Positions 4,913-16,007 of a stretch of 16,007 nucleotides of DNA are shown here, in pieces. The translations under genes were made by a program, and so were the position numbers. This DNA comes from a virus (Duplodnaviria > Heunggongvirae > Uroviricota > Caudoviricetes): IMG/VR virus record IMGVR_UViG_2713896896_000011, positions 1 to 16,007 of that record. One strand, 5' to 3'. The notes below the pieces were generated by a model, which made no database searches, was not told the origin of the DNA, and saw only the letters and a program-made list of their open reading frames with translations. How positions within the stretch are numbered: position 1 is the stretch's first letter; each line of letters opens with the position of its first letter.

Positions 4913-5262
4913 AACACCTCCGTTGAGTTGATTACGCCGTCAGCGGCGCGCCATTGCACACGTAACGTCAGATGTTCACCGTCGATTATCGGTGCTACCT
5001 TCAGCAACCGACATCGCGGTTCCCACTGGCGGATGGCTTCCACCGACTCCCGTACCACATGCGGGATTGCCCGCTCGATGGGGTAATCGATGTAGTGCCA
5101 CAAGTTGCTGCCAAACAGCGGTCTGTGGGGATCACTGCCGCGCGGCGTGCGCAGAATGATGTGTATTGCCTGGTGAATATCATCCAGTCCGCAGACGTAT
5201 TCTTCAGGCCGCTGCAAGGCGGGTTGCCAGTGCAGCGTTGAGGGGCGTGTTTTTGTGTTCAT
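4903..5262 (-). CDS. baseplate wedge protein, gpW / gp25-like (Mu gp46-like)
   Basis: 119 aa. Contains RPLFGSNLWHYIDYP, resembling the gp25/W signature. Located between the spike and the J-like gene. Confidence 0.75.
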   Translation of the reverse strand: MNTKTRPSTLHWQPALQRPEEYVCGLDDIHQAIHIILRTPRGSDPHRPLFGSNLWHYIDYPIERAIPHVVRESVEAIRQWEPRCRLLKVAPIIDGEHLTLRVQWRAADGVINSTEVLWR

Positions 5263-5325
5263 GTGCTTATTTTCGCCCTGAACGGACAGTGGGGATATTA
5301 AAGCGATTTAGAAAACTGATTGATT

Positions 5326-5355
5326 AAAAAGAGAAAACCCGCCATCAGGCGGGTT
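5326..5355 (-). terminator. intrinsic terminator-like hairpin immediately after the spike gene
   Basis: Stem aacccgcc (5336-5343) / ggcgggtt (5348-5355), loop atca. On the minus-strand RNA it is followed by UUCUCUUUUU (plus 5326-5335). Sits in the 98-bp gap between the spike and gp25-like genes. Confidence 0.55.
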
Positions 5356-5360
5356 AAAAG

Positions 5361-6020
5361 CTAGTGTGAATGGTGATTTGAGTTACCACCGCTATCCTGC
5401 AATGTGCCGCTGGCCTGAACGTTACCAATCACATTGACATTGCCAGTTATCGTGGCGGCGTTACCGATGCCTCCACTTCCTGCCATGCCACCCAGCCAGG
5501 TGAGTTTTTTCATTACCGTGACGTTACCAGTAAAGGTGCTCATGGGCGCATCTACCGTCACTGTCGCCGCTTTAATATCGACGGTATCGGAAGTCACGGT
5601 GACCTGTTGGGCTTTAACCTCAACGTTGGGTGATGTCAGGTTAGTATGGTCAATAACCTCAATCACGATTTTCTCAATACCGCCGTTAATCGTAAGCTGG
5701 TGTGTGCTGCGGTCATATTCAAACGCTGCGCCATCAGAAAACTGGACGTAACGTTTATCTCGCGAGGCCACAGGCGCGGTGTCAACCGTAGAATAAACGG
5801 CCCCAAGTACCACGCCATCTTCGCCGTTGTCGTCCAGCAGAACTTCCACCTGCTCACCCATATCCGGTAGCCAGTAGTCTTTATTGTCCTGGGAATTACG
5901 TTGAAGTACCGCAAGCCAGTTACTCTTCAGATTGTCGCACTCTGGCAGTGTGACTCGCACCCGAACGCTGGTTTCGTCAATATCGCTGATAATCCCCGTT
6001 TGCCGGGTTACTCCCTTCAT
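5361..6020 (-). CDS. baseplate central spike / assembly protein V-like (Mu gp45-like)
   Basis: 219 aa. N-terminus GIISDIDETSVRVRVTLPECDNLKSNWL resembles gpV. C-terminal repetitive beta-helix-like region (GNVTV...GNVNVIGNVQASG) ends in the His-rich tip NSNHHSH. SD GGAGG 4 nt upstream of the ATG. Confidence 0.8.
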   Translation of the reverse strand: MKGVTRQTGIISDIDETSVRVRVTLPECDNLKSNWLAVLQRNSQDNKDYWLPDMGEQVEVLLDDNGEDGVVLGAVYSTVDTAPVASRDKRYVQFSDGAAFEYDRSTHQLTINGGIEKIVIEVIDHTNLTSPNVEVKAQQVTVTSDTVDIKAATVTVDAPMSTFTGNVTVMKKLTWLGGMAGSGGIGNAATITGNVNVIGNVQASGTLQDSGGNSNHHSH

Positions 6021-6029
6021 AGTGCCTCC

Positions 6030-7070
6030 TTACTGGCTGGTTGCTGGCCCGCGCGAAACGTCGATTTCAGTGGTATAGCCGCTGCGCACAAAACTGTGAG
6101 TAGATTTATCAATCAGCCATTGTCCAGAAAGAATACCAAAATCAATGAGTTCGATTTTATTGCCTGCTGTCAGTTCCGGGCAGCCCATCATCCTGAGTGT
6201 TCCGGTTTGCTGATATTCGTTGTGGCTGTCGAGTGCAGCGTTGGCCTTTGCCTGTGCCGCGCCAACATCCGTCGCCCGGCTGTTGAGTTTCAACGTGTCG
6301 GCACTGGTGCCGACTCCACGGGCTGACGGTTTTTGCTGGCTGTCGTGAGTGTAGATAACCAGTTCTTTTTTCTTACTATTTTGATGCTGTACGGTGGCGT
6401 TCTTGTAGATGCGATTAATGGTGTCTTTGAAGGTAAAGTGCGAAACCTCTTTGCGGTCGATGGTTTTCACTGGCGCCAGGCAGCGTAGTGTCGGCAGATG
6501 TGAAAAAATCAGCTCTTTTGTCGTCACTTTCACGGCATAGCCATATTCGCTGGCCAGACGCTTGAGAAATCCAACATCGGTTTCGCCGTACTGTGTCACC
6601 CGGTCAATCGCCAGCGGCTCGATTTTGCCCACCAGCTTCAGACCGTGAGTTTGCGCGATACGACTGGCGATGGCCGAAAGCGTCGTTTCTTCAAAGCCCT
6701 GACTGTTACGGGTACGCAGCGCCTGATTGACGGAAGTGGCAATGCCATCAATATTTACCGTGGAAGGTGGTGCTGAAATATCAATTTTATCAATAATATA
6801 CTGACCGCAATTGAGGAGCGTCTCCCCCTGATAACCCATATGCAGCGCCAGCGTATCGCCTTTGCCGGGATACCACTCTTTTATCCAACGTCCATCGGTG
6901 TCATCCAGTGTAATGGCGATGGTATCTGACTCGTTTTTGATGCTGTCGTGGTAACTGATGCTGGTGACATAGGGCGTGATGTCATAAGTGATATCTTTAT
7001 GCCCATACCAAAGGGTAAAAATGGGCGCGAGTGTGGCAAAGACGCCACCAGATACGCTTATCTCAGCCAT
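6030..7070 (-). CDS. baseplate hub / tail protein, P2 gpD / Mu P (gp44)-like
   Basis: 346 aa, placed between tail protein X and the spike as in Mu and P2 tail modules. Assignment by size, order and N-terminal resemblance. Confidence 0.7.
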   Translation of the reverse strand: MAEISVSGGVFATLAPIFTLWYGHKDITYDITPYVTSISYHDSIKNESDTIAITLDDTDGRWIKEWYPGKGDTLALHMGYQGETLLNCGQYIIDKIDISAPPSTVNIDGIATSVNQALRTRNSQGFEETTLSAIASRIAQTHGLKLVGKIEPLAIDRVTQYGETDVGFLKRLASEYGYAVKVTTKELIFSHLPTLRCLAPVKTIDRKEVSHFTFKDTINRIYKNATVQHQNSKKKELVIYTHDSQQKPSARGVGTSADTLKLNSRATDVGAAQAKANAALDSHNEYQQTGTLRMMGCPELTAGNKIELIDFGILSGQWLIDKSTHSFVRSGYTTEIDVSRGPATSQ

Positions 7071-7270
7071 GGTGGTATCTCCGATAAGGTTTTGTTGACG
7101 GAAATGACCGGAATAATGAGTTGAATACCGGAAGGCAGTACCGGGTAAATGGCGACATGTGGATTGGCGGCGATGATGCGTTCATAAGCCAGCGCATCGC
7201 CGTAGTAATACCATGCCAGATTATCCCAGCGTTCGCCGTCGGTGGTGATATGTTCAAGGTATCGCATCAC
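7058..7270 (-). CDS. tail protein X-like (LysM-like small tail protein)
   Basis: 70 aa. WYYYGDALAYERIIAANPHV...IQLIIP matches the LysM-like pattern of P2 gpX-type proteins. Start overlaps the upstream stop as ATGA. Confidence 0.7.
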   Translation of the reverse strand: MMRYLEHITTDGERWDNLAWYYYGDALAYERIIAANPHVAIYPVLPSGIQLIIPVISVNKTLSEIPPWLR

Positions 7271-8220
7271 CAGCTCCTCGTAATGGTCGCGGCAGCAAGC
7301 TGGCTCACTGCGGGAGTGGTTTGTTGTACCGTTGTTCGTGCCTGCTCAACCAACGTTGCGGCTTTATCGAACGTCGCTTCGGCGATGTCGTTGGTAATGT
7401 CGTCGAAAAGCGCCTGAGCATGGTCAACCAGCGTGCTGGCGTCTTTGGCGCAGTCCCGGATACCTGGCATGTTACCCAGTAAAGCGTTAATCTGCGCCGA
7501 TAACGCTTTTGGGAGTCCTGCCAGCGTTTGCAGATCCATGGGCTGTTTAAACAGGGTTTCGATGGCGTCGATAGTCTTTTTCAACGACGTAATTATCTTT
7601 TCACACTTTTCTTTTAACGCTTTGGCCTCTTTAACCAGTGCTTTCACTTTTGCCACCGTTTTTTTAATATCTTCAATGGCTTGAGTCAGCTCATCGAGCA
7701 TCTCTTTGGCCTTACGCATACCTTCTTCAATGGCGTTCAATATCTGATCAAACCAGGACTCCACCATGTCTGGAAAATCGCTCGCCTTTTCGTCAATATT
7801 CGGGTCTTGGGTAGTAATTGCCGGGGGCAAGAGTGGATTTTTAGGATCGCCGGTGTACTCCTGGAGCGACATTGTTCCGCTTTGAGCAATCACATTGCCC
7901 CAGGGATCGGTGTGCTGGTGGGTGGCGGTTAGCTCCGTAATCACAAACCAGCCGCGATAATCGCCATTGCCAAACACCAGAGCCATCGCTTTGTGGGCAA
8001 GCATGGCTTCACGCAGTCGATTCAGCTCTGTTGTGGGTTGGCAAAACTGGCTGTGCAAGGAAAATTCCAGTGCCAGCATATCCAGCTTATCGCCAATAAA
8101 CTGCACGCCGGGTTTGCCTTCTATACGGGCATGTGTGGCGTAGTCCACGCCCATTGTGCTTTTAAAGCCGTCCCAGAATGTGACAACCTTAAATTCAATC
8201 TCTCCTAAAACGGCATACAT
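7267..8220 (-). CDS. DNA circulation-like tail protein (Mu N / gp43-like, short form)
   Basis: 317 aa, immediately downstream of the tape measure; start overlaps the tape measure stop as TGATG. Central Lys/Glu-rich coiled-coil segment. Assignment mainly by synteny. Confidence 0.6.
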   Translation of the reverse strand: MYAVLGEIEFKVVTFWDGFKSTMGVDYATHARIEGKPGVQFIGDKLDMLALEFSLHSQFCQPTTELNRLREAMLAHKAMALVFGNGDYRGWFVITELTATHQHTDPWGNVIAQSGTMSLQEYTGDPKNPLLPPAITTQDPNIDEKASDFPDMVESWFDQILNAIEEGMRKAKEMLDELTQAIEDIKKTVAKVKALVKEAKALKEKCEKIITSLKKTIDAIETLFKQPMDLQTLAGLPKALSAQINALLGNMPGIRDCAKDASTLVDHAQALFDDITNDIAEATFDKAATLVEQARTTVQQTTPAVSQLAAATITRSW

Positions 8221-10595
8221 CAGGCATACCCCCGGCGCTGTTGTTGCGCCATTACGTCGTTAATCATTCTTTCCAGTTCGCGTTTACTTATCGTCAACAC
8301 GTTCTGAATGTCTTTAGTGGTGTTTTGTCCGTTACTCTGCACGGTAATTTGTGGCGAAAAATTCACCTGAACTTTTCCAGAGGAACGGGAGGGGAGCGTC
8401 GCCGGTTTGGTTACAGATTTACCAGGTAAAGAGGCCGATGCGGGTTTGGCGGCTGTATTTTTTGCCGCTGGTGTCGATGGCGACGTTGTCGTTTTACTGG
8501 ATGGCGCGAGTTGTTTGCCCACAGGAGGCGTTAAAATCGCTCCGGCAACGCCTGGAACAACGGTCGTGGGGGAGATTGATGCGGTATTCGTCGTGCTTGT
8601 AACAGCCGTAGCCGATCCTTCTGTGCTAATACCCATCGTGGTTTTTAGCCAGTCCGGTAAGGCGTTTTTGACCTGATCAATAATGCCTTTCAGAGCGGGG
8701 AAAGCATTCATTATGCCGTCAACCAGACTGCCCAGAAGATTGCTGCCGAACTCGCTAAAACTTGCAGGCATCTCGACACCAAACCAATTCATCACACTGG
8801 AAAAGGCGCTGTAGAACAACTCCAGCGGCGACCAGTCGAGAATTAACCGGCAAATCCCTGCAATGCCGCCGTCAAAGGCCGTGGTGATACGTTGCCAGAT
8901 GGCGGAAAAGAATCTGGAGATAGGTTCCCAGTGGCGATAGATCAGATAAGCAGCGCCCGCAATCGCGGTGATGACCAGACCAATGGGATTCATCAATAAA
9001 ACTCTACCCAACCAGAAGACGGTCTGACCTGCCAGTTTCAATGCGCCAATCAGGCCACGGCCAAGCAGTTGCGTTAGCCATTTTGCGCCGTTATATAATG
9101 ACTTAACCGCTGATAGCATCTTACTTGCCGCGCCTGTGAGCGTCAGACTTGCCCTGACTTTCAGGAAGATATCGACCAGACGAATAAACGGCGAGGCGAT
9201 GACGTTCGCGCCCAGCTTTAAAACATTCAGTGCGCCGTTAAACAGCCAAATCGCTCCGACGATTTTCGCAATGTTTTGCACCAGCGCCGGGTGTTCACGT
9301 AGCCAGGCGCTGAACTGGCGAATCACCGGAGTAAGGCTTTGCGCCAACTCGCCAATCAGCGGCATTAATTGCAAGCCAATGCTGAGCCATAAATCATTTA
9401 ACGCCAGTTGTAACGTTTTAGTTTGTTCAATGGGTGAGGCCATCTGCACAGAAAAATCGTTGTCAATCAGATTCTTACCGCTGTCTTGCATGGCGGAGGC
9501 TTTTAACTGGCGATACTCTTCCATATTCGCCAGCACAGGTGCCAGGAATTCCACTGTTTGCGCATCGCCGAACATTTCGCCCAGATTAAATTGCGTCACC
9601 ATCGATTGCAGTGCGTTGCTGCGAGCAGATAAATCTTCAATTTGCATGGTGCGTTTGAAGGTGTCGAGGATCGCCGGATTCATCTTCTCAAGTTGCGTTT
9701 GCACGATATGAATCATGGCTTCGCTAACACCCATGCCGTTTTGCTGATGTTCAAGCAGAGAGCCTTGCAGATCGACGCCCTGGCTGACGAACCAGTTATC
9801 GGTTTTTTTCGAAAAGATGGTTTGCAGAAAGTGGTCGAAATTCTCCGCCGCCACACTGGCGCTGGCACCATTTTTCATTGCGATCTGCATTGTGGCGGTC
9901 AGTTCAGCCATACCTTCTAAACCCTGTGCGCCAGTTTTAACTGCAAATTTGTCTATCCACTGTGTTTGCCCGGCAACGGTAGGCCCACCGTTTTTGCTAA
10001 TGCCGTACATCATGTTTTGCGCGGCGTGGAAATTTTCTGGCGCAATATTCAGTCGATCATGAGTCGCGAGCGCGGCATTCGCCCATGTTTCAGCACTTTC
10101 GCGCGTGGTGGTGGCCGCTTTGGCGATCTCCGGCATATAACGGTTGAGATCCTGCATCGACGACAAATTACCTTCGATTAGCACCTGGGCTGCGTTCTGT
10201 AAGGTGGTCTGCTGCTGGTTAAAATCCATGCTCCAGTCGCGCAGATTAAGGCTGAGTGTCTCGCGGGTTGTATCATTCATCCCACCTTTGGTCGCCAAAT
10301 TGACCATGTTGTCCTGAAACTCATACGGCAACTTCCAGTCAGGGATTTCAACATTGAATACTTTGCTAAATTGCCCGGCAAATGTTTGGGTTTTCTCCAT
10401 CAGATCAGCGCGGTTTCGGCTATTTTCCTCCAGGCGGAGAGCGGAATCGGCAAGTTGCTGCGTTAGTTTGATTACTGTCGCTTGCTGAGAAGAGAGTGCT
10501 AACAATGTTCTGGCGTTGAGTGAGCCGTAACGGGCTATTGCCTGCGTCAACGTCTCATTACGCGCCTGAAGCTGGGTAATAATATCGTTGGCCAA
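8220..10595 (-). CDS. tail tape measure protein
   Basis: 791 aa with internal hydrophobic segments and a Ser/Thr/Pro-rich C-terminal tract, located between chaperone and baseplate genes. Apparent start is TTG at 10595-10593 with AAGAG upstream; there is no in-frame ATG between the upstream stop (10634-10632) and the TTG. Confidence 0.85.
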   Translation of the reverse strand: MANDIITQLQARNETLTQAIARYGSLNARTLLALSSQQATVIKLTQQLADSALRLEENSRNRADLMEKTQTFAGQFSKVFNVEIPDWKLPYEFQDNMVNLATKGGMNDTTRETLSLNLRDWSMDFNQQQTTLQNAAQVLIEGNLSSMQDLNRYMPEIAKAATTTRESAETWANAALATHDRLNIAPENFHAAQNMMYGISKNGGPTVAGQTQWIDKFAVKTGAQGLEGMAELTATMQIAMKNGASASVAAENFDHFLQTIFSKKTDNWFVSQGVDLQGSLLEHQQNGMGVSEAMIHIVQTQLEKMNPAILDTFKRTMQIEDLSARSNALQSMVTQFNLGEMFGDAQTVEFLAPVLANMEEYRQLKASAMQDSGKNLIDNDFSVQMASPIEQTKTLQLALNDLWLSIGLQLMPLIGELAQSLTPVIRQFSAWLREHPALVQNIAKIVGAIWLFNGALNVLKLGANVIASPFIRLVDIFLKVRASLTLTGAASKMLSAVKSLYNGAKWLTQLLGRGLIGALKLAGQTVFWLGRVLLMNPIGLVITAIAGAAYLIYRHWEPISRFFSAIWQRITTAFDGGIAGICRLILDWSPLELFYSAFSSVMNWFGVEMPASFSEFGSNLLGSLVDGIMNAFPALKGIIDQVKNALPDWLKTTMGISTEGSATAVTSTTNTASISPTTVVPGVAGAILTPPVGKQLAPSSKTTTSPSTPAAKNTAAKPASASLPGKSVTKPATLPSRSSGKVQVNFSPQITVQSNGQNTTKDIQNVLTISKRELERMINDVMAQQQRRGYA

Positions 10596-11127: not shown

Positions 11128-11147
11128 TTCGGGGCCGTAGCCCCGAA
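11128..11147. other. stable stem-loop between tube and chaperone genes
   Basis: ttcggggc (11128-11135) / gccccgaa (11140-11147), loop cgta, 4 nt after the tube stop. No U-tract follows on the minus-strand RNA, so it is not a canonical terminator. Confidence 0.5.
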
Positions 11148-13097: not shown

Positions 13098-13284
13098 GTA
13101 CAATTTCCTCTACGTTATTTTGTTCTTCCTGGGGAATGATGAGAATCAAGTGATTTCGGGCAATCATGGTCATAACCCACTCATTGTCTTCTGGCAGATC
13201 AATTTCACTGTTCGGCCATAATAAGATTTCTTGACCGTCGGCAAGGGTGACGCCGCTTGCCGGACCGTTGTAGATATATTTCAT
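13087..13284 (-). CDS. small conserved protein upstream of the sheath (Mu gp38 / DUF2635-like)
   Basis: 65 aa. Start overlaps the upstream stop as ATGA; overlaps the sheath start. Assignment by position and size only. Confidence 0.5.
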   Translation of the reverse strand: MKYIYNGPASGVTLADGQEILLWPNSEIDLPEDNEWVMTMIARNHLILIIPQEEQNNVEEIVHGS

Positions 13285-13736
13285 TCAGTTTCCTCGTAAT
13301 TAACTTCAGTAAGCAGGGGAAGATCCGTGCTGTCCTGTTCAGCGATAAACAGCGAGCTGGTCGCCATTTCCAGGATGTAGCGGCAGAAACCGTCGCTCTC
13401 ACCCGTATTAATTTCTTTTTCAAGCCAAATAAGATGATCGCAATCAGGAGGCTGAAGGCCTCCCAATGCGCTGCGTATGTGATCAAGTGCGTTTAACGCA
13501 TCACAATTTTTGCCAACAATAACGGTGGCGGTTAAGCGGAGTATTTGCTGTTGTACAATGGCATCACTACTTTCGGGCGTGGTGAAGACAGAACCGCTAT
13601 AATTAATAATCACCGTAATCTGTTGTGTCTGTGGAATATATTTTGGGGCATCCGTAGATGAAATGAATATGTCCATTTCAGGATGCCGATCACGTAATCT
13701 GACCACGACATAATTCATTACAGATAAAACTTTCAT
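13281..13736 (-). CDS. tail terminator / tail completion protein (Mu gp37 / K-like)
   Basis: 151 aa, first gene of the structural module after the terminator hairpin, with SD AAGG upstream of the ATG at 13736. Sits where Mu-like genomes encode gp37 before the sheath. Confidence 0.5.
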   Translation of the reverse strand: MKVLSVMNYVVVRLRDRHPEMDIFISSTDAPKYIPQTQQITVIINYSGSVFTTPESSDAIVQQQILRLTATVIVGKNCDALNALDHIRSALGGLQPPDCDHLIWLEKEINTGESDGFCRYILEMATSSLFIAEQDSTDLPLLTEVNYEETE

Positions 13737-13842
13737 ATGAGGTTTACCTTATTACCGCTCACTTCGTTATCGTTGAAATGTATTCTGAAGCAGTGAGAGT
13801 GAAGAATCTTTTAATGTGATTTAGAGAAAAAATTGAATGGTT

Positions 13843-13877
13843 ATAAAAAATCCCCACACTTACGTAAAGGTGGGGAT
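13843..13877 (-). terminator. rho-independent terminator separating the lysis cassette from the tail structural genes
   Basis: Near-palindromic 28-bp hairpin (13850-13877; arms atccccac / gtggggat) 5 nt after the stop of gene 13882-14196. On the minus-strand RNA it is followed by UUUUUUAU (plus 13843-13850). Confidence 0.65.
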
Positions 13878-13881
13878 GTAT

Positions 13882-14196
13882 TTAATAACTGCCACGTTGT
13901 AATAACTCTATTTTGCTATATAAGGCATCCAGCTTTGCTTCTAATACTGCTTGTCCACGAAGATAATCCTCTCTGCGGACATAATACAGTGGAAGTTCGG
14001 CACGAAATTCGAGAAATTCTCTTTCCAGTTTCGACCAGCTTGTTTCTGATTCCCTGCGGGCATTTTCCAGGGACTCAAAACGCTCATTAAGTCTTTTTTC
14101 AATTTGCGCTAACAGCAATTTTCCGGCAGCAAACATTAATCCAACGAATGAAAGCATAAAGGAGATCACTTCCCAAAAATCGATACTGAGTTTCAT
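13882..14196 (-). CDS. membrane-anchored coiled-coil lysis accessory protein (i-spanin-like or releasin-like)
   Basis: 104 aa. N-terminal hydrophobic segment (WEVISFMLSFVGLMFAAGKLLL) followed by a charged coiled-coil region. SD GAGGGG 4 nt before the ATG. Immediately downstream of the lytic enzyme. Confidence 0.5.
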   Translation of the reverse strand: MKLSIDFWEVISFMLSFVGLMFAAGKLLLAQIEKRLNERFESLENARRESETSWSKLEREFLEFRAELPLYYVRREDYLRGQAVLEAKLDALYSKIELLQRGSY

Positions 14197-14208
14197 CGGC
14201 CCCTCTGA

Positions 14209-14814
14209 TTAGTGAAGACAGCTTGCCTGTCCCCAGAGTAAGTAGCGGGCGGCGTGTTGATAGAGAATCATCTTCGGATAGTGACGATTTTCTCGCCAGT
14301 TTGCGGCGCTGCGCCCGGCGTTGACTTGCTCAACATGACCAAACCAGATGGCGGCATTTAACCCTTTTGTTGTCGCCAGTTTTTTATCCCGGTTAATCCA
14401 ACCCTGACCACCGTTATAGGCGCTTAGAGTAAACGCCATACGTTGACAATCATTTTTTGCAGAGATGTTGTTCCATAAATGCTGGTCGTACTGTACCAAC
14501 GCCCGGATTGCCCAGGTTGGGTTATACGGTTTGTTTTCATGTAGCTGTGGATACAGTTGGCTTATCCATGTCGCTGTGGCAGGCATAAATTGCGCCATAC
14601 CTTGTGCGCCAACGGGGGAACGTACCATTGGCTGCCAGGCGGACTCCTGGTGTAATTGCCCGGCAAAGTCAGCCACCGGAGCGTTCAGTCCCCAGACTTC
14701 TCGGGCGGTACGAATCAATTCATTTCTCCATGCCAGAGAGGCTTGTGGTGGTTCAGACGCGTTAAGCGGGAAAAGAACGAAAATAATCATAGGCGCGATA
14801 TATTTTAGCCACAT
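14209..14814 (-). CDS. lytic transglycosylase-type endolysin (SLT domain) with N-terminal signal or signal-anchor
   Basis: SLT-like motifs (QLHQESAWQP with the catalytic Glu context, GAQGMAQFMPATA, AYNGG). The likely start is ATG 14814-14812 (MWLKYIAPMIIFVLFPLNA...), abutting the holin-like stop in TAGTGATG. The ORF track's longer start at 14913 overlaps the upstream gene and is probably not used. Confidence 0.75.
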   Translation of the reverse strand: MWLKYIAPMIIFVLFPLNASEPPQASLAWRNELIRTAREVWGLNAPVADFAGQLHQESAWQPMVRSPVGAQGMAQFMPATATWISQLYPQLHENKPYNPTWAIRALVQYDQHLWNNISAKNDCQRMAFTLSAYNGGQGWINRDKKLATTKGLNAAIWFGHVEQVNAGRSAANWRENRHYPKMILYQHAARYLLWGQASCLH

Positions 14815-14816
14815 CA

Positions 14817-15104
14817 CTATAGCCCTAACGCGACGGAAAGGCAGACTGCAGCCACGATGATGGCGCGACGAATCATTGCCGCTGCGTAGCAACGCGGTTC
14901 CTTTCTGGGGCAAAAAAAGTCAGGCCGTGCCCAGGGGAACAAACTACGATCGAGCCAGTATCCCAGCACTGCAGAAAGTGAAACCAGGCTTAGTTTATAA
15001 ATGACGACCGGAATTTGTGCTGAAGATGTCCAGCCGATTAATGCGATCAGAGCAATGGCTGCAGCCAGCCAACCGGAAAGACGGGGAAAAGTGATTTTTC
15101 TCAT
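14817..15104 (-). CDS. holin-like small membrane protein, first gene of the leftward operon
   Basis: 95 aa with two or three hydrophobic segments. Strong SD AGGAGA (15116-15111) 6 nt before the ATG at 15104. Directly upstream of the lytic transglycosylase. Confidence 0.55.
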   Translation of the reverse strand: MRKITFPRLSGWLAAAIALIALIGWTSSAQIPVVIYKLSLVSLSAVLGYWLDRSLFPWARPDFFCPRKEPRCYAAAMIRRAIIVAAVCLSVALGL

Positions 15105-15659
15105 ACGATATCTCCTGATAAGTGAGATACCAGTGTCTGCTTATCTCTTTGCTGAAGAATGAAAAAAGCTTTAATAAATAACTTTAAAAAATGTGTTCTC
15201 TTCGAATTAACATGTTCGCCAATTAATCTCCCAACTCAAAATAGAGAACTAAGGATAAAATGGCTGCTAGTTAGATAAATCCTGCGTTATGTGTAATGAA
15301 GGGGATGACATATTGCAATCATGGTCATTACTTATTTGATTTTTAAAGTTTGTTTAAAAAAATCCTCGACTGTGAGGGAAACGAGCTTTTTGAAAAGTAG
15401 GCGATAAAAATGATAAATAGCACTGTATATGTATACAGTATCGTGTAAAATGGCACTCCTGTTGATAAGACATGTAATGAAAATAATATATTTGTTTTGT
15501 GAATTTATAATTCGTTTTAATTTTTATTGCATATACATTGTGATTATTTATTTGCGTGTTGAATGTATTGAAAAGCAGTAATTGCACCAACTTAGCGGAT
15601 ATCCGTGGTGTAACTCACATCAGAGTCCATACAGGGTGCAAGATATATGGAGATGAAAA
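15105..15659. promoter_or_regulatory. AT-rich divergent control region between the lysis/tail operon and the Mor-like gene
   Basis: About 555 bp at roughly 28% GC, flanked by divergently oriented start codons with good Shine-Dalgarno sequences on each side. Contains the LexA-like box and several dyad symmetries. Confidence 0.6.
15421..15440. promoter_or_regulatory. LexA (SOS) box
   Basis: CACTGTATATGTATACAGTA matches the E. coli LexA consensus TACTGTATATATATACAGTA at 18 of 20 positions, with intact CTGT-N8-ACAG (15423-15438). A TTGAAA -35-like hexamer at 15390-15395 and AT-rich -10-like sequence TGATAAAT (15411-15418) lie just upstream on the plus strand. Confidence 0.7.
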
Positions 15660-16007
15660 ATGATACAAAAAGCAAAAGAGATGACCCGGACACCGGAGAT
15701 CATTAACGATTTGGCGTTTCATGCTTCGCAAGTTCTGATTGAGAGCATCAATCTGGATAGCTCATCTGCGGAAAATGTTGGCTATGCCATTGCCGATCGC
15801 ATGATGCGAAACTGGGGCGGACAAAGCATTTATTTTCCAAAAGGAATCGCCAGGCGTGCCTCGGAGCGGGACTATCAAATCTATAGCGAGTGCGATGGGC
15901 GCAACTACGCCGAATTAGCGAAGAAATATAATCTGACGCTGCAATGGATTTATAAGATAGTAAAACGCGTGCATACAGAAAAGCAGCAACAGCGCCGTAT
16001 GCAGTAG
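15660..16007 (+). CDS. Mor/C-family transcriptional activator (Mu middle/late activator-like)
   Basis: 115 aa. C-terminal region GGQSIYFPKG...RDYQIYSECDGRNYAELAKKYNLTLQWIYKIVKR aligns by eye with Mu Mor (GGQVYIPRG...RIWNDFNGRNVSELTTRYGVTFNTVYKAIRR). SD GGAGA 6 nt before the ATG. The stop codon is the last triplet of the window. Confidence 0.7.
   Translation: MIQKAKEMTRTPEIINDLAFHASQVLIESINLDSSSAENVGYAIADRMMRNWGGQSIYFPKGIARRASERDYQIYSECDGRNYAELAKKYNLTLQWIYKIVKRVHTEKQQQRRMQ

Follow-up and report, generated by a model that had tools for sequence, protein, structure and literature searches.

How does a phage-tail gene cluster that lacks head genes divide its transcription between the genes for lysis and those for the tail? 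The question is raised by positions 13737-13881 of the 16,007-nt stretch of Escherichia albertii DNA analysed here (the window). The initial annotation had placed a 28-bp near-palindrome with a U-tract 5 nt after the last lysis gene and had interpreted it as an intrinsic terminator, such that the structural genes would require either a promoter of their own in 13737-13842 or an antitermination mechanism.

Gene content and chromosomal site of the cluster

All genes of the window are encoded on the minus strand with the exception of the gene for a Mor-family activator. Read from right to left, this plus-strand gene is followed by a 555-bp divergent region and by the genes for a holin, an SLT-domain endolysin and a 104-aa membrane protein (Table 1). 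The segment 13737-13881 is the exact intergenic region between the TAA stop codon of the 104-aa gene and the ATG of the Gp37-family gene at 13736. Downstream of it are the genes for Gp37, a 65-aa protein, the sheath, the tube, the assembly chaperone, the tape measure, gpU, X, D and V, and, beyond a 98-bp gap after gpV, those for gpW, J, I, the fibre and the fibre chaperone. The tail, baseplate and fibre ORFs are all intact, and Pfam and PHROG identified no gene for head formation, packaging, replication or integration in the window. A full contractile-tail set accompanied by a lysis cassette corresponds to the gene content of an R-type tailocin.

The 104-aa protein is a homolog (45% identity) as well as the positional equivalent of BcepMu gp25. 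It had no match in Pfam or NCBIfam and no BLASTP similarity to the Mu gp25 'releasin', and its label as a putative lysis protein derives from its position only. The lysis region of the window (13882-15104), consisting of the genes for the holin, the SLT endolysin and the 104-aa protein, has no room for spanin genes; Rz/Rz1 of BcepMu sit between the endolysin and the gp25 homolog, and the Pectobacterium loci have a gap of ~650 bp at this position.

The same cluster is present with 88% identity in 197 of 5426 complete E. coli genomes (~4%), where it is flanked by lysC on one side and, beyond two unrelated non-phage genes, by yjbD/rluF on the other. Its Salmonella counterpart is STM4198-STM4219. 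The same chromosomal site adjoining lysC is occupied in at least 8 genera, among them Citrobacter, Enterobacter, Dryocola and Superficieibacter, which suggests an old and largely vertical inheritance of the headless cluster. Among the loci inspected individually, lysC adjoins the headless cluster in L001, L002, L085-L090 and L092, with yjbD/rluF near the far side where that flank was seen. Copies in decay were encountered as well: L086 is without the genes from the tape measure to gpW, and a transposase has inserted in the 104-aa gene of L088.

Relatives for comparison were the 80 loci fetched by sheath homology; with Gp37 as the query, the single-protein locus search found nothing and the homolog search reached Escherichia only. 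Literature searches by Salmonella STM42xx tag and by Mor in combination with tailocin yielded no publication on this cluster or on its transcription. A paper on an E. coli ST131 'tailocin' was rejected as an account of this cluster, as it concerns a different, P2-like prophage.

Hairpins and predicted promoters in the two intergenic gaps

Table 1. Position and strand of the genes and of the observed or predicted regulatory features of the window.
Feature	Position	Strand	Remarks
Mor/C-family transcription activator gene	15660-16007	+	PF08765, E = 8e-38; only one in the cluster; divergent transcription
LexA-box-like palindrome CTGTATATGTATACAG	15423-15438		Mor-holin divergent region; near-consensus
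Holin gene	14817-15104	-	Upstream of hairpin
SLT-domain endolysin gene	14209-14814	-	Upstream of hairpin
Gene for 104-aa protein, last of the lysis-region operon	13882-14196	-	PHROG 462; N-terminal hydrophobic segment
Terminator hairpin AUCCCCAC-CUUUACGUAAGU-GUGGGGAU, 28 nt	13877-13850	-	-14.9 to -15.5 kcal/mol; conserved with compensatory changes
U-run of terminator, UUUUU-A-U	13849-13843	-	Six consecutive U counting the closing U at 13850
A/T-rich spacer directly upstream of dyad	13842-13826	-	Position of the Mu Pm proximal UP subsite (PMC4390567); putative role
16-bp dyad TCTAA-ATCACA-TTAAA, predicted Mor-family activator site	13825-13810	-	Arms 4/5 complementary
Predicted -10 hexamer CAGAAT	13787-13782	-	22 bp past dyad; matches consensus 4/6
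Predicted 5' leader of tail operon	13775-13737	-	Start predicted near 13775/13774 from the -10
Shine-Dalgarno AAGG	13750-13747	-	In predicted tail-operon leader
Gp37-family gene, first of the tail operon (Gp37, 65-aa gene, sheath, tube ... gpV)	13281-13736	-	
Second terminator hairpin AACCCGCC UGAU GGCGGGUU and U-rich tail	5355-5336	-	-15.3 kcal/mol, z = -3.5
Second dyad TCTAA-ATCGCT-TTAAT	5312-5297	-	
Second predicted -10, GAAAAT	5274-5269	-	22 bp past dyad; 6 nt before the gpW ATG at 5262

The near-palindrome and its U-tract were confirmed at the expected length, and the gap that separates them on the coding (minus) strand from the TAA stop codon of the 104-aa gene (13884-13882) was found to be 4 nt instead of 5. 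RNAfold predicted 11 pairs, one bulge and a 5-nt loop with -15.5 kcal/mol, compared to a mean of -7.4 kcal/mol for shuffled sequences (z = -3.5), and none of 200 shuffles was as stable. A simple terminator scan of the window did not list this hairpin, because the scan demands an uninterrupted stem with a loop of 3-8 nt and the stem is interrupted by the bulge; its 8-bp outer stem encloses 12 nt.

Orthologous hairpins followed by a T-run were present with -15 to -19 kcal/mol in 10 of the 14 loci of the same architecture, representing Escherichia, Salmonella, Citrobacter, one Enterobacter, Superficieibacter and Phytobacter. The T-run was invariant in the ortholog alignment, and the seven outer pairs exhibited standard pairing in 100% of 56 cells, including two compensatory pairs and one wobble, compared to just 29-60% of cells in slid controls. 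The sequences of the inner stem and the loop varied among lineages with pairing retained. Among the remaining four loci, Dryocola, E. cloacae and E. cancerogenus had a weak hairpin or none, and that of Lelliottia was different. The Pectobacterium loci carry at the same position an unrelated, equally strong hairpin (GCGCCAGCAC...GUGCUGGCGU followed by U7, -16 to -19 kcal/mol). As judged from the alignments, this conservation shows that the hairpin is not a product of chance, and since the structure has been kept while the sequence changed, selection appears to have acted on a structure, as for a terminator, and not on a protein-binding palindrome. The G+C-rich stem-loop, the U-run directly 3' of it, the location just past a stop codon on the coding strand and the conserved structure are all those of an intrinsic terminator, and the initial proposal is thus supported computationally by hairpin anatomy, position and covariation; that it would be a strong one is suggested by the structure. 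The absence or weakness of the hairpin in some genera indicates that termination is probably not indispensable.

Cross-genus alignment of the intergenic region revealed a block that is better conserved than the hairpin and consists of yCTAA-N6-TTAAA followed, after 22-23 bp, by nAnAAT, with CATAAT, CAAAAT, GATAAT and AATAAT as variants of the -10 among the orthologs. The predicted leader contains a conserved block of its own, GAACGATAACGAAG. No usable -35 element precedes Gp37 (best candidate 2/6), a scan for the sigma-70 -35/-10 consensus returned no site in the Gp37 promoter region, and RefSeq has no annotation in the intergenic region. The E. albertii and E. coli versions of the intergenic region share 94-95% identity, compared to 88% for the surrounding 3 kb, which argues that it is under selection.

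The promoters activated by Mor or C in phage Mu combine a -10 element with a 16-bp dyad centred at -43.5, in which 6 bp separate two inverted repeats of 5 bp each, and have no -35; the published Mor site of Pm extends from -51 to -36 (PMC4390567, PMC2582627, PMC4287176). The region upstream of Gp37 displays a 16-bp imperfect dyad of 5-bp repeats and a 6-bp spacer, the 22-bp gap to the -10, the missing -35 and, encoded by the same element, an activator of the matching family. The predicted centre of the dyad is near -43.5 relative to +1, and the arrangement is found again where other late operons begin, in the element as well as in its relatives, with the exception of the window's own holin promoter. 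The comparison supports the presence of a conserved Mor/C-activated promoter in 13737-13842, and with it the suggestion that the structural genes have a promoter of their own. This promoter is near-universal among the relatives, and the terminator is missing in some genera; as several genera keep the promoter and have lost or weakened the hairpin, the former would be the obligatory element and the latter an optional insulator.

When read from the Mu genome, Pm has the composition AGTAA-AGCCGG-TTAAT, 22 bp and TATCCT. Mu and the window share the form of the dyad, the distance of ~22 bp to the -10, the lack of a -35, a Mor/C-family activator and a terminator at or before the promoter. In contrast, the window has a half-site that deviates in its details and a spacer that is not rich in G/C, its hairpin lies ~25 bp upstream of the dyad whereas the Mor site of Pm overlaps a terminator hairpin, and the two-activator cascade of Mu (Mor, then C) has its counterpart in a single activator that is 26% identical to Mu Mor. 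According to the Mu GenBank record, predicted terminators overlap Pm and stand just before Plys and P_I, so that the combination of a terminator with an activator-dependent promoter is the standard design of this phage group. The division of the operons is also alike, into lysis, heads plus tail shaft, and baseplate plus fibres; in Mu, heads, sheath, tube and tape measure belong to the I transcript, and the baseplate and fibres to a P transcript of their own.

The gap between gpV and gpW is the only other sizeable one in the gene array. Hairpin, dyad and -10 are repeated there (5355-5269), the motif site again just after the terminator, and the two intergenic regions align end to end. A search with the composite motif found two sites in the window versus 0.06 expected, a number reached by none of 300 shuffles; as the dyad pattern was defined from the Gp37 site, only the other occurrences count as tests. 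The hairpin between gpV and gpW was present in all eight headless loci examined and absent from the complete prophage. Given the short distance between GAAAAT and the gpW start codon, a leaderless or nearly leaderless mRNA is predicted. GAAAAT(A) also forms the loop of a small inverted repeat (5280-5262 on the minus strand, e.g. GGGGC GAAAATA GCCCC), with the ATG directly after it. This repeat is conserved from BcepMu to the enterobacteria, with 82% of cells paired and three compensatory pairs, and is degraded in E. albertii itself. Either a leaderless mRNA or an RNA structure is predicted for the start of gpW, and the repeat complicates the reading of the second -10.

Further elements were observed in other gaps and loci. 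A G+C-rich 8-bp hairpin with a UACG loop and without a U-run is located right after the tube stop codon in the gap between the tube and assembly chaperone genes (11128-11147, minus strand). A dyad and -10 module occupies this gap in Pectobacterium, Brenneria and the complete prophage L091, and none is found there in the window. In Salmonella Infantis (L002, ~4980-8310; STM4204-4206), gpV is separated from the gpW promoter by an insert that comprises the gtrABC genes for O-antigen glucosylation and a small ORF and is bordered by copies of the REP-like sequence GCCCGGTAAGCGCAGAAGCGCCACCGGGC; the gpV terminator has lost its 3' half there, and the dyad and -10 before gpW are intact. Short repeat elements have inserted in L087 (17749-18015, Dryocola gpV/gpW gap), in L006 (4127-4210, Phytobacter) and in the Mor-holin region of L090, in all three cases outside the dyad and -10 modules. 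In Dryocola the insert is reminiscent of an ERIC-type element.

Relatives, ancestry and the activator gene

BcepMu (Bcepmuvirus) shares with the window the order of the tail genes, a single Mor/C activator (48% identity), gp25 as the homolog of the 104-aa protein and the motif nnTAA-N6-TTAAA, 22 bp, -10. In BcepMu this motif is located on the coding strand directly upstream of the holin gene and of the head gene equivalent to Mu I, with one weaker extra match at 10452 and a variant in the V/W gap. Unlike the window, BcepMu possesses the head, packaging and transposition genes of a complete transposable phage, and its Gp37 comes directly after Gp36, with neither gap nor promoter between them. 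As the head genes have been lost from the window, the head-operon promoter would now drive Gp37.

In Pectobacterium and Brenneria the motif was found upstream of the holin, Gp37 and TAC genes. The Pectobacterium loci, which we take to be carotovoricin-type tail clusters, resemble the window in their lysis cassette, terminator hairpin, dyad and -10, Gp37, sheath and tube, with sheath proteins that are 74-76% identical. Unlike the window, they have extra genes between the endolysin and Gp37, namely probable spanin genes in a gap and, besides these, a winged-helix ORF resembling gp26, as well as a further module separating tube from TAC, a terminator hairpin of unrelated sequence as detailed above, and no Mor gene within 5 kb upstream. 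Two Chromobacterium loci carry the motif in the divergent region between Mor and Gp37, where no upstream gene could supply transcripts.

The 80 loci were surveyed for the motif within 420 bp upstream of Gp37. It was present in 22 of the 23 loci in which a lysis cassette precedes Gp37 and in none of the ~48 loci that lacked both a lysis-cassette match and a Mor match upstream of Gp37, which appear to be mostly complete phages. In the complete Mu-like prophage L091 of E. coli, the head genes separate the 104-aa gene homolog from Gp36/Gp37, and the Lelliottia counterpart of the intergenic region can be aligned with the sequence preceding the I-like head gene of this prophage. The match takes in the ribosome-binding site and the initial eight codons before it stops. 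Lelliottia thus keeps the head-operon promoter together with the first I-like codons, which argues that the Gp37 promoter is the ancestral late promoter of the head operon, left behind after deletion of the head genes. To judge from these alignments, the cluster is probably a headless derivative of a BcepMu-like transposable phage and the Gp37 promoter the analogue of Mu P_I.

The activator encoded in the window is 48% identical to BcepMu gp01, with a nearly identical helix-turn-helix, 26% identical to Mu Mor and 36% identical over 61 aa to Mu C. In the divergent region between its gene and the holin gene, CTGT-N8-ACAG has its single occurrence in the window (0.16 expected) in the form of the LexA-like box. 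This box overlaps a promoter-like minus-strand sequence pointing toward the holin gene (TTTACA-N16-TACAGT, 15449-15422). The box and TTTACA are kept in 10 of 12 loci of the same architecture and lost in E. cloacae and E. cancerogenus, and suggest a likely SOS control input to the cluster. A short hairpin with a T-run, CCCTC ACAGTC GAGG ATTTTTTT, lies ~50 nt downstream of the LexA-overlapped promoter (~15377-15350, minus strand). Its stem changes among genera (CTCACG ATCG CGTGAG TTTTT in Salmonella) and is adjoined by the conserved TTAAACAAACTTTAAAAATCAA; it could belong to a short SOS-induced RNA or to an attenuated leader.

The canonical module of dyad, 22 bp and -10 is absent upstream of the holin gene of the window, unlike the holin genes of BcepMu and Pectobacterium, which do carry this geometry. 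The region at ~15194-15130 (minus strand) consists of the invariant A/T-rich CATTTTTTAAAGTTATTTATTAAAGC followed by TTCTTC and a conserved nAyACT (GACACT). Its consensus is composed of an invariant ATTTTTTAAAsTTATTTATTAAAsC, the -35-like TTCTTC and nAyACT ~32 bp past TTAAA. The lysis promoter seems to have been rewired to a different architecture in this lineage. With a holin promoter of this kind, not all three units need be driven by Mor, and lysis and tails need not answer to one activator.

Predicted transcription units and alternative readings

In the scheme that we propose, 13737-13881 would be the boundary between two transcription units of the type found in Mu-like phages. The transcript of the lysis region, encoding the holin, the SLT endolysin and the 104-aa protein, would end at the hairpin and U-run, at 13845-13843. 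Some 18 bp downstream, the dyad at 13825-13810 would be bound by the Mor-family protein as a dimer or higher oligomer and would stand in for a -35 element, and the activator would recruit sigma-70 RNA polymerase to CAGAAT at 13787-13782. The tail-shaft operon from Gp37 to gpV would then start near 13775 and end at the hairpin after gpV, and the second module (5355-5269) would start the baseplate and fibre operon at gpW from a second Mor-type promoter. With the terminators in place, the level of each unit would be determined by its own promoter, and the terminators might also shield weak activator-dependent promoters from incoming polymerases. The efficiency of termination, the start of transcription, the binding of the Mor-like protein and the dependence on it are what the arrangement would predict. 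Separate timing or dosing of the lysis and tail units is plausible by analogy and matches the Mu precedent. We consider it probable that the boundary as a whole, a terminator followed by a Mor-type activator-dependent tail promoter, has been read correctly; the sequence anatomy, its conservation, covariation and recurrence and the presence of the activator gene are observed.

A single long operon with a leaky hairpin would be an alternative arrangement in which the hairpin merely attenuates transcription or stabilises the processed 3' end of the lysis mRNA, the tail genes are expressed mainly by read-through from the upstream promoter and the conserved downstream block is a relic of an ancestral promoter that no longer functions. 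The loss of the hairpin in some genera with no other visible change and the weak -10 in the window speak for it, and as the promoter module was inherited from an ancestral phage, its presence alone is no proof of activity. However, dyad, spacing and -10 have been kept across many genera while the flanking intergenic sequence diverged, the conservation of the intergenic region between E. albertii and E. coli exceeds that of its coding flanks, and in the two Chromobacterium loci this module is all that lies upstream of Gp37, so that we regard a read-through operon as unlikely. Somewhat less likely still is that the elements are fossils in a decaying prophage remnant that is no longer expressed. 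Decay is indeed evident in related loci, namely the IS insertion in the 104-aa gene of L088, the tail-gene deletion of L086 and the degenerate dyad and -10 of E. cancerogenus, but the intact tail, baseplate and fibre ORFs of the window, the occupation of the same lysC-adjacent site in at least 8 genera and the conservation of the regulatory sequences and the LexA box are at odds with it.

Polymerase could also pass the hairpins by processive antitermination, as with lambda Q/N or AlpA of P. aeruginosa, and the lysis and tail genes would then form one regulated unit. Two strong terminator-like hairpins inside a co-directional gene array would fit such a mechanism, and other phage-derived systems do employ antitermination (AlpA, PMC7969949; BaGTA preprint). 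This alternative, which the initial annotation had offered beside a separate promoter, found no backing in the window, where no antiterminator family was detected among the proteins (Pfam, PHROG) and no match to Rfam occurred anywhere; moreover, with a promoter module placed after every hairpin there is no need for read-through, and we judge this alternative very unlikely. We give next to no credence to the palindrome as a DNA operator for the Mor-like protein or a repressor in place of an RNA terminator. In favour of an operator, the outer arms ATCCC/GGGAT do not vary from one enterobacterial locus to another and the Mor site of Mu overlaps a terminator hairpin, but the arm spacing varies between 26 and 29 nt, the inner stems differ with pairing kept, a T-run always follows, Pectobacterium has a hairpin of unrelated sequence at the same position, and the centre of the palindrome is near -85 from the predicted start and not at -43.5, the geometry that the separate dyad fits. 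The 28-nt palindrome had also been tried as a Mor site centred at -43.5 and was rejected on the grounds of a missing -10 at the right distance, the variable arm spacing, the covariation of the inner stem and the better fit of the downstream dyad.

The proposed terminator and Mor-type promoter can be set beside other tail systems. The tail genes of phage P2 are distributed over several late operons, each with an Ogr-dependent promoter that lacks a good -35. Ogr is a zinc-finger activator and differs from Mor in family and site; we know of no Ogr homolog in the window. The R-type pyocin of P. aeruginosa resembles the cluster as a phage-tail-derived, DNA-damage-inducible system with its own lysis cassette. 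In contrast to what is proposed for the cluster, the related alp lysis pathway is governed by the antiterminator AlpA (PMC7969949) instead of a Mor-type activator acting on internal promoters, and the regulators belong to different gene families.

The window provides a further example of a known design, the Mu-type boundary between late operons, in a headless tail cluster that is uncharacterised, and the understanding of phage-type late regulation is unchanged by this case. We tentatively put forward, as a possibility that could well prove wrong, that the lysC-adjacent cluster is a long-domesticated tailocin of many Enterobacteriaceae, triggered by SOS/LexA and activated by Mor. It would have kept the BcepMu-like scheme of three units, with the shaft operon on a recycled head-operon promoter, terminators that insulate the separately dosed lysis, shaft and baseplate/fibre units, and a rewired lysis promoter. 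For the cluster itself, the analysis yields a testable regulatory map of three transcription units, two terminator-promoter modules and one Mor-family activator, as well as nnTAA-N6-TTAAA as a candidate recognition motif for the activators of BcepMu-like phages, and the map shows which elements to keep or mutate when these particles are to be induced or engineered.
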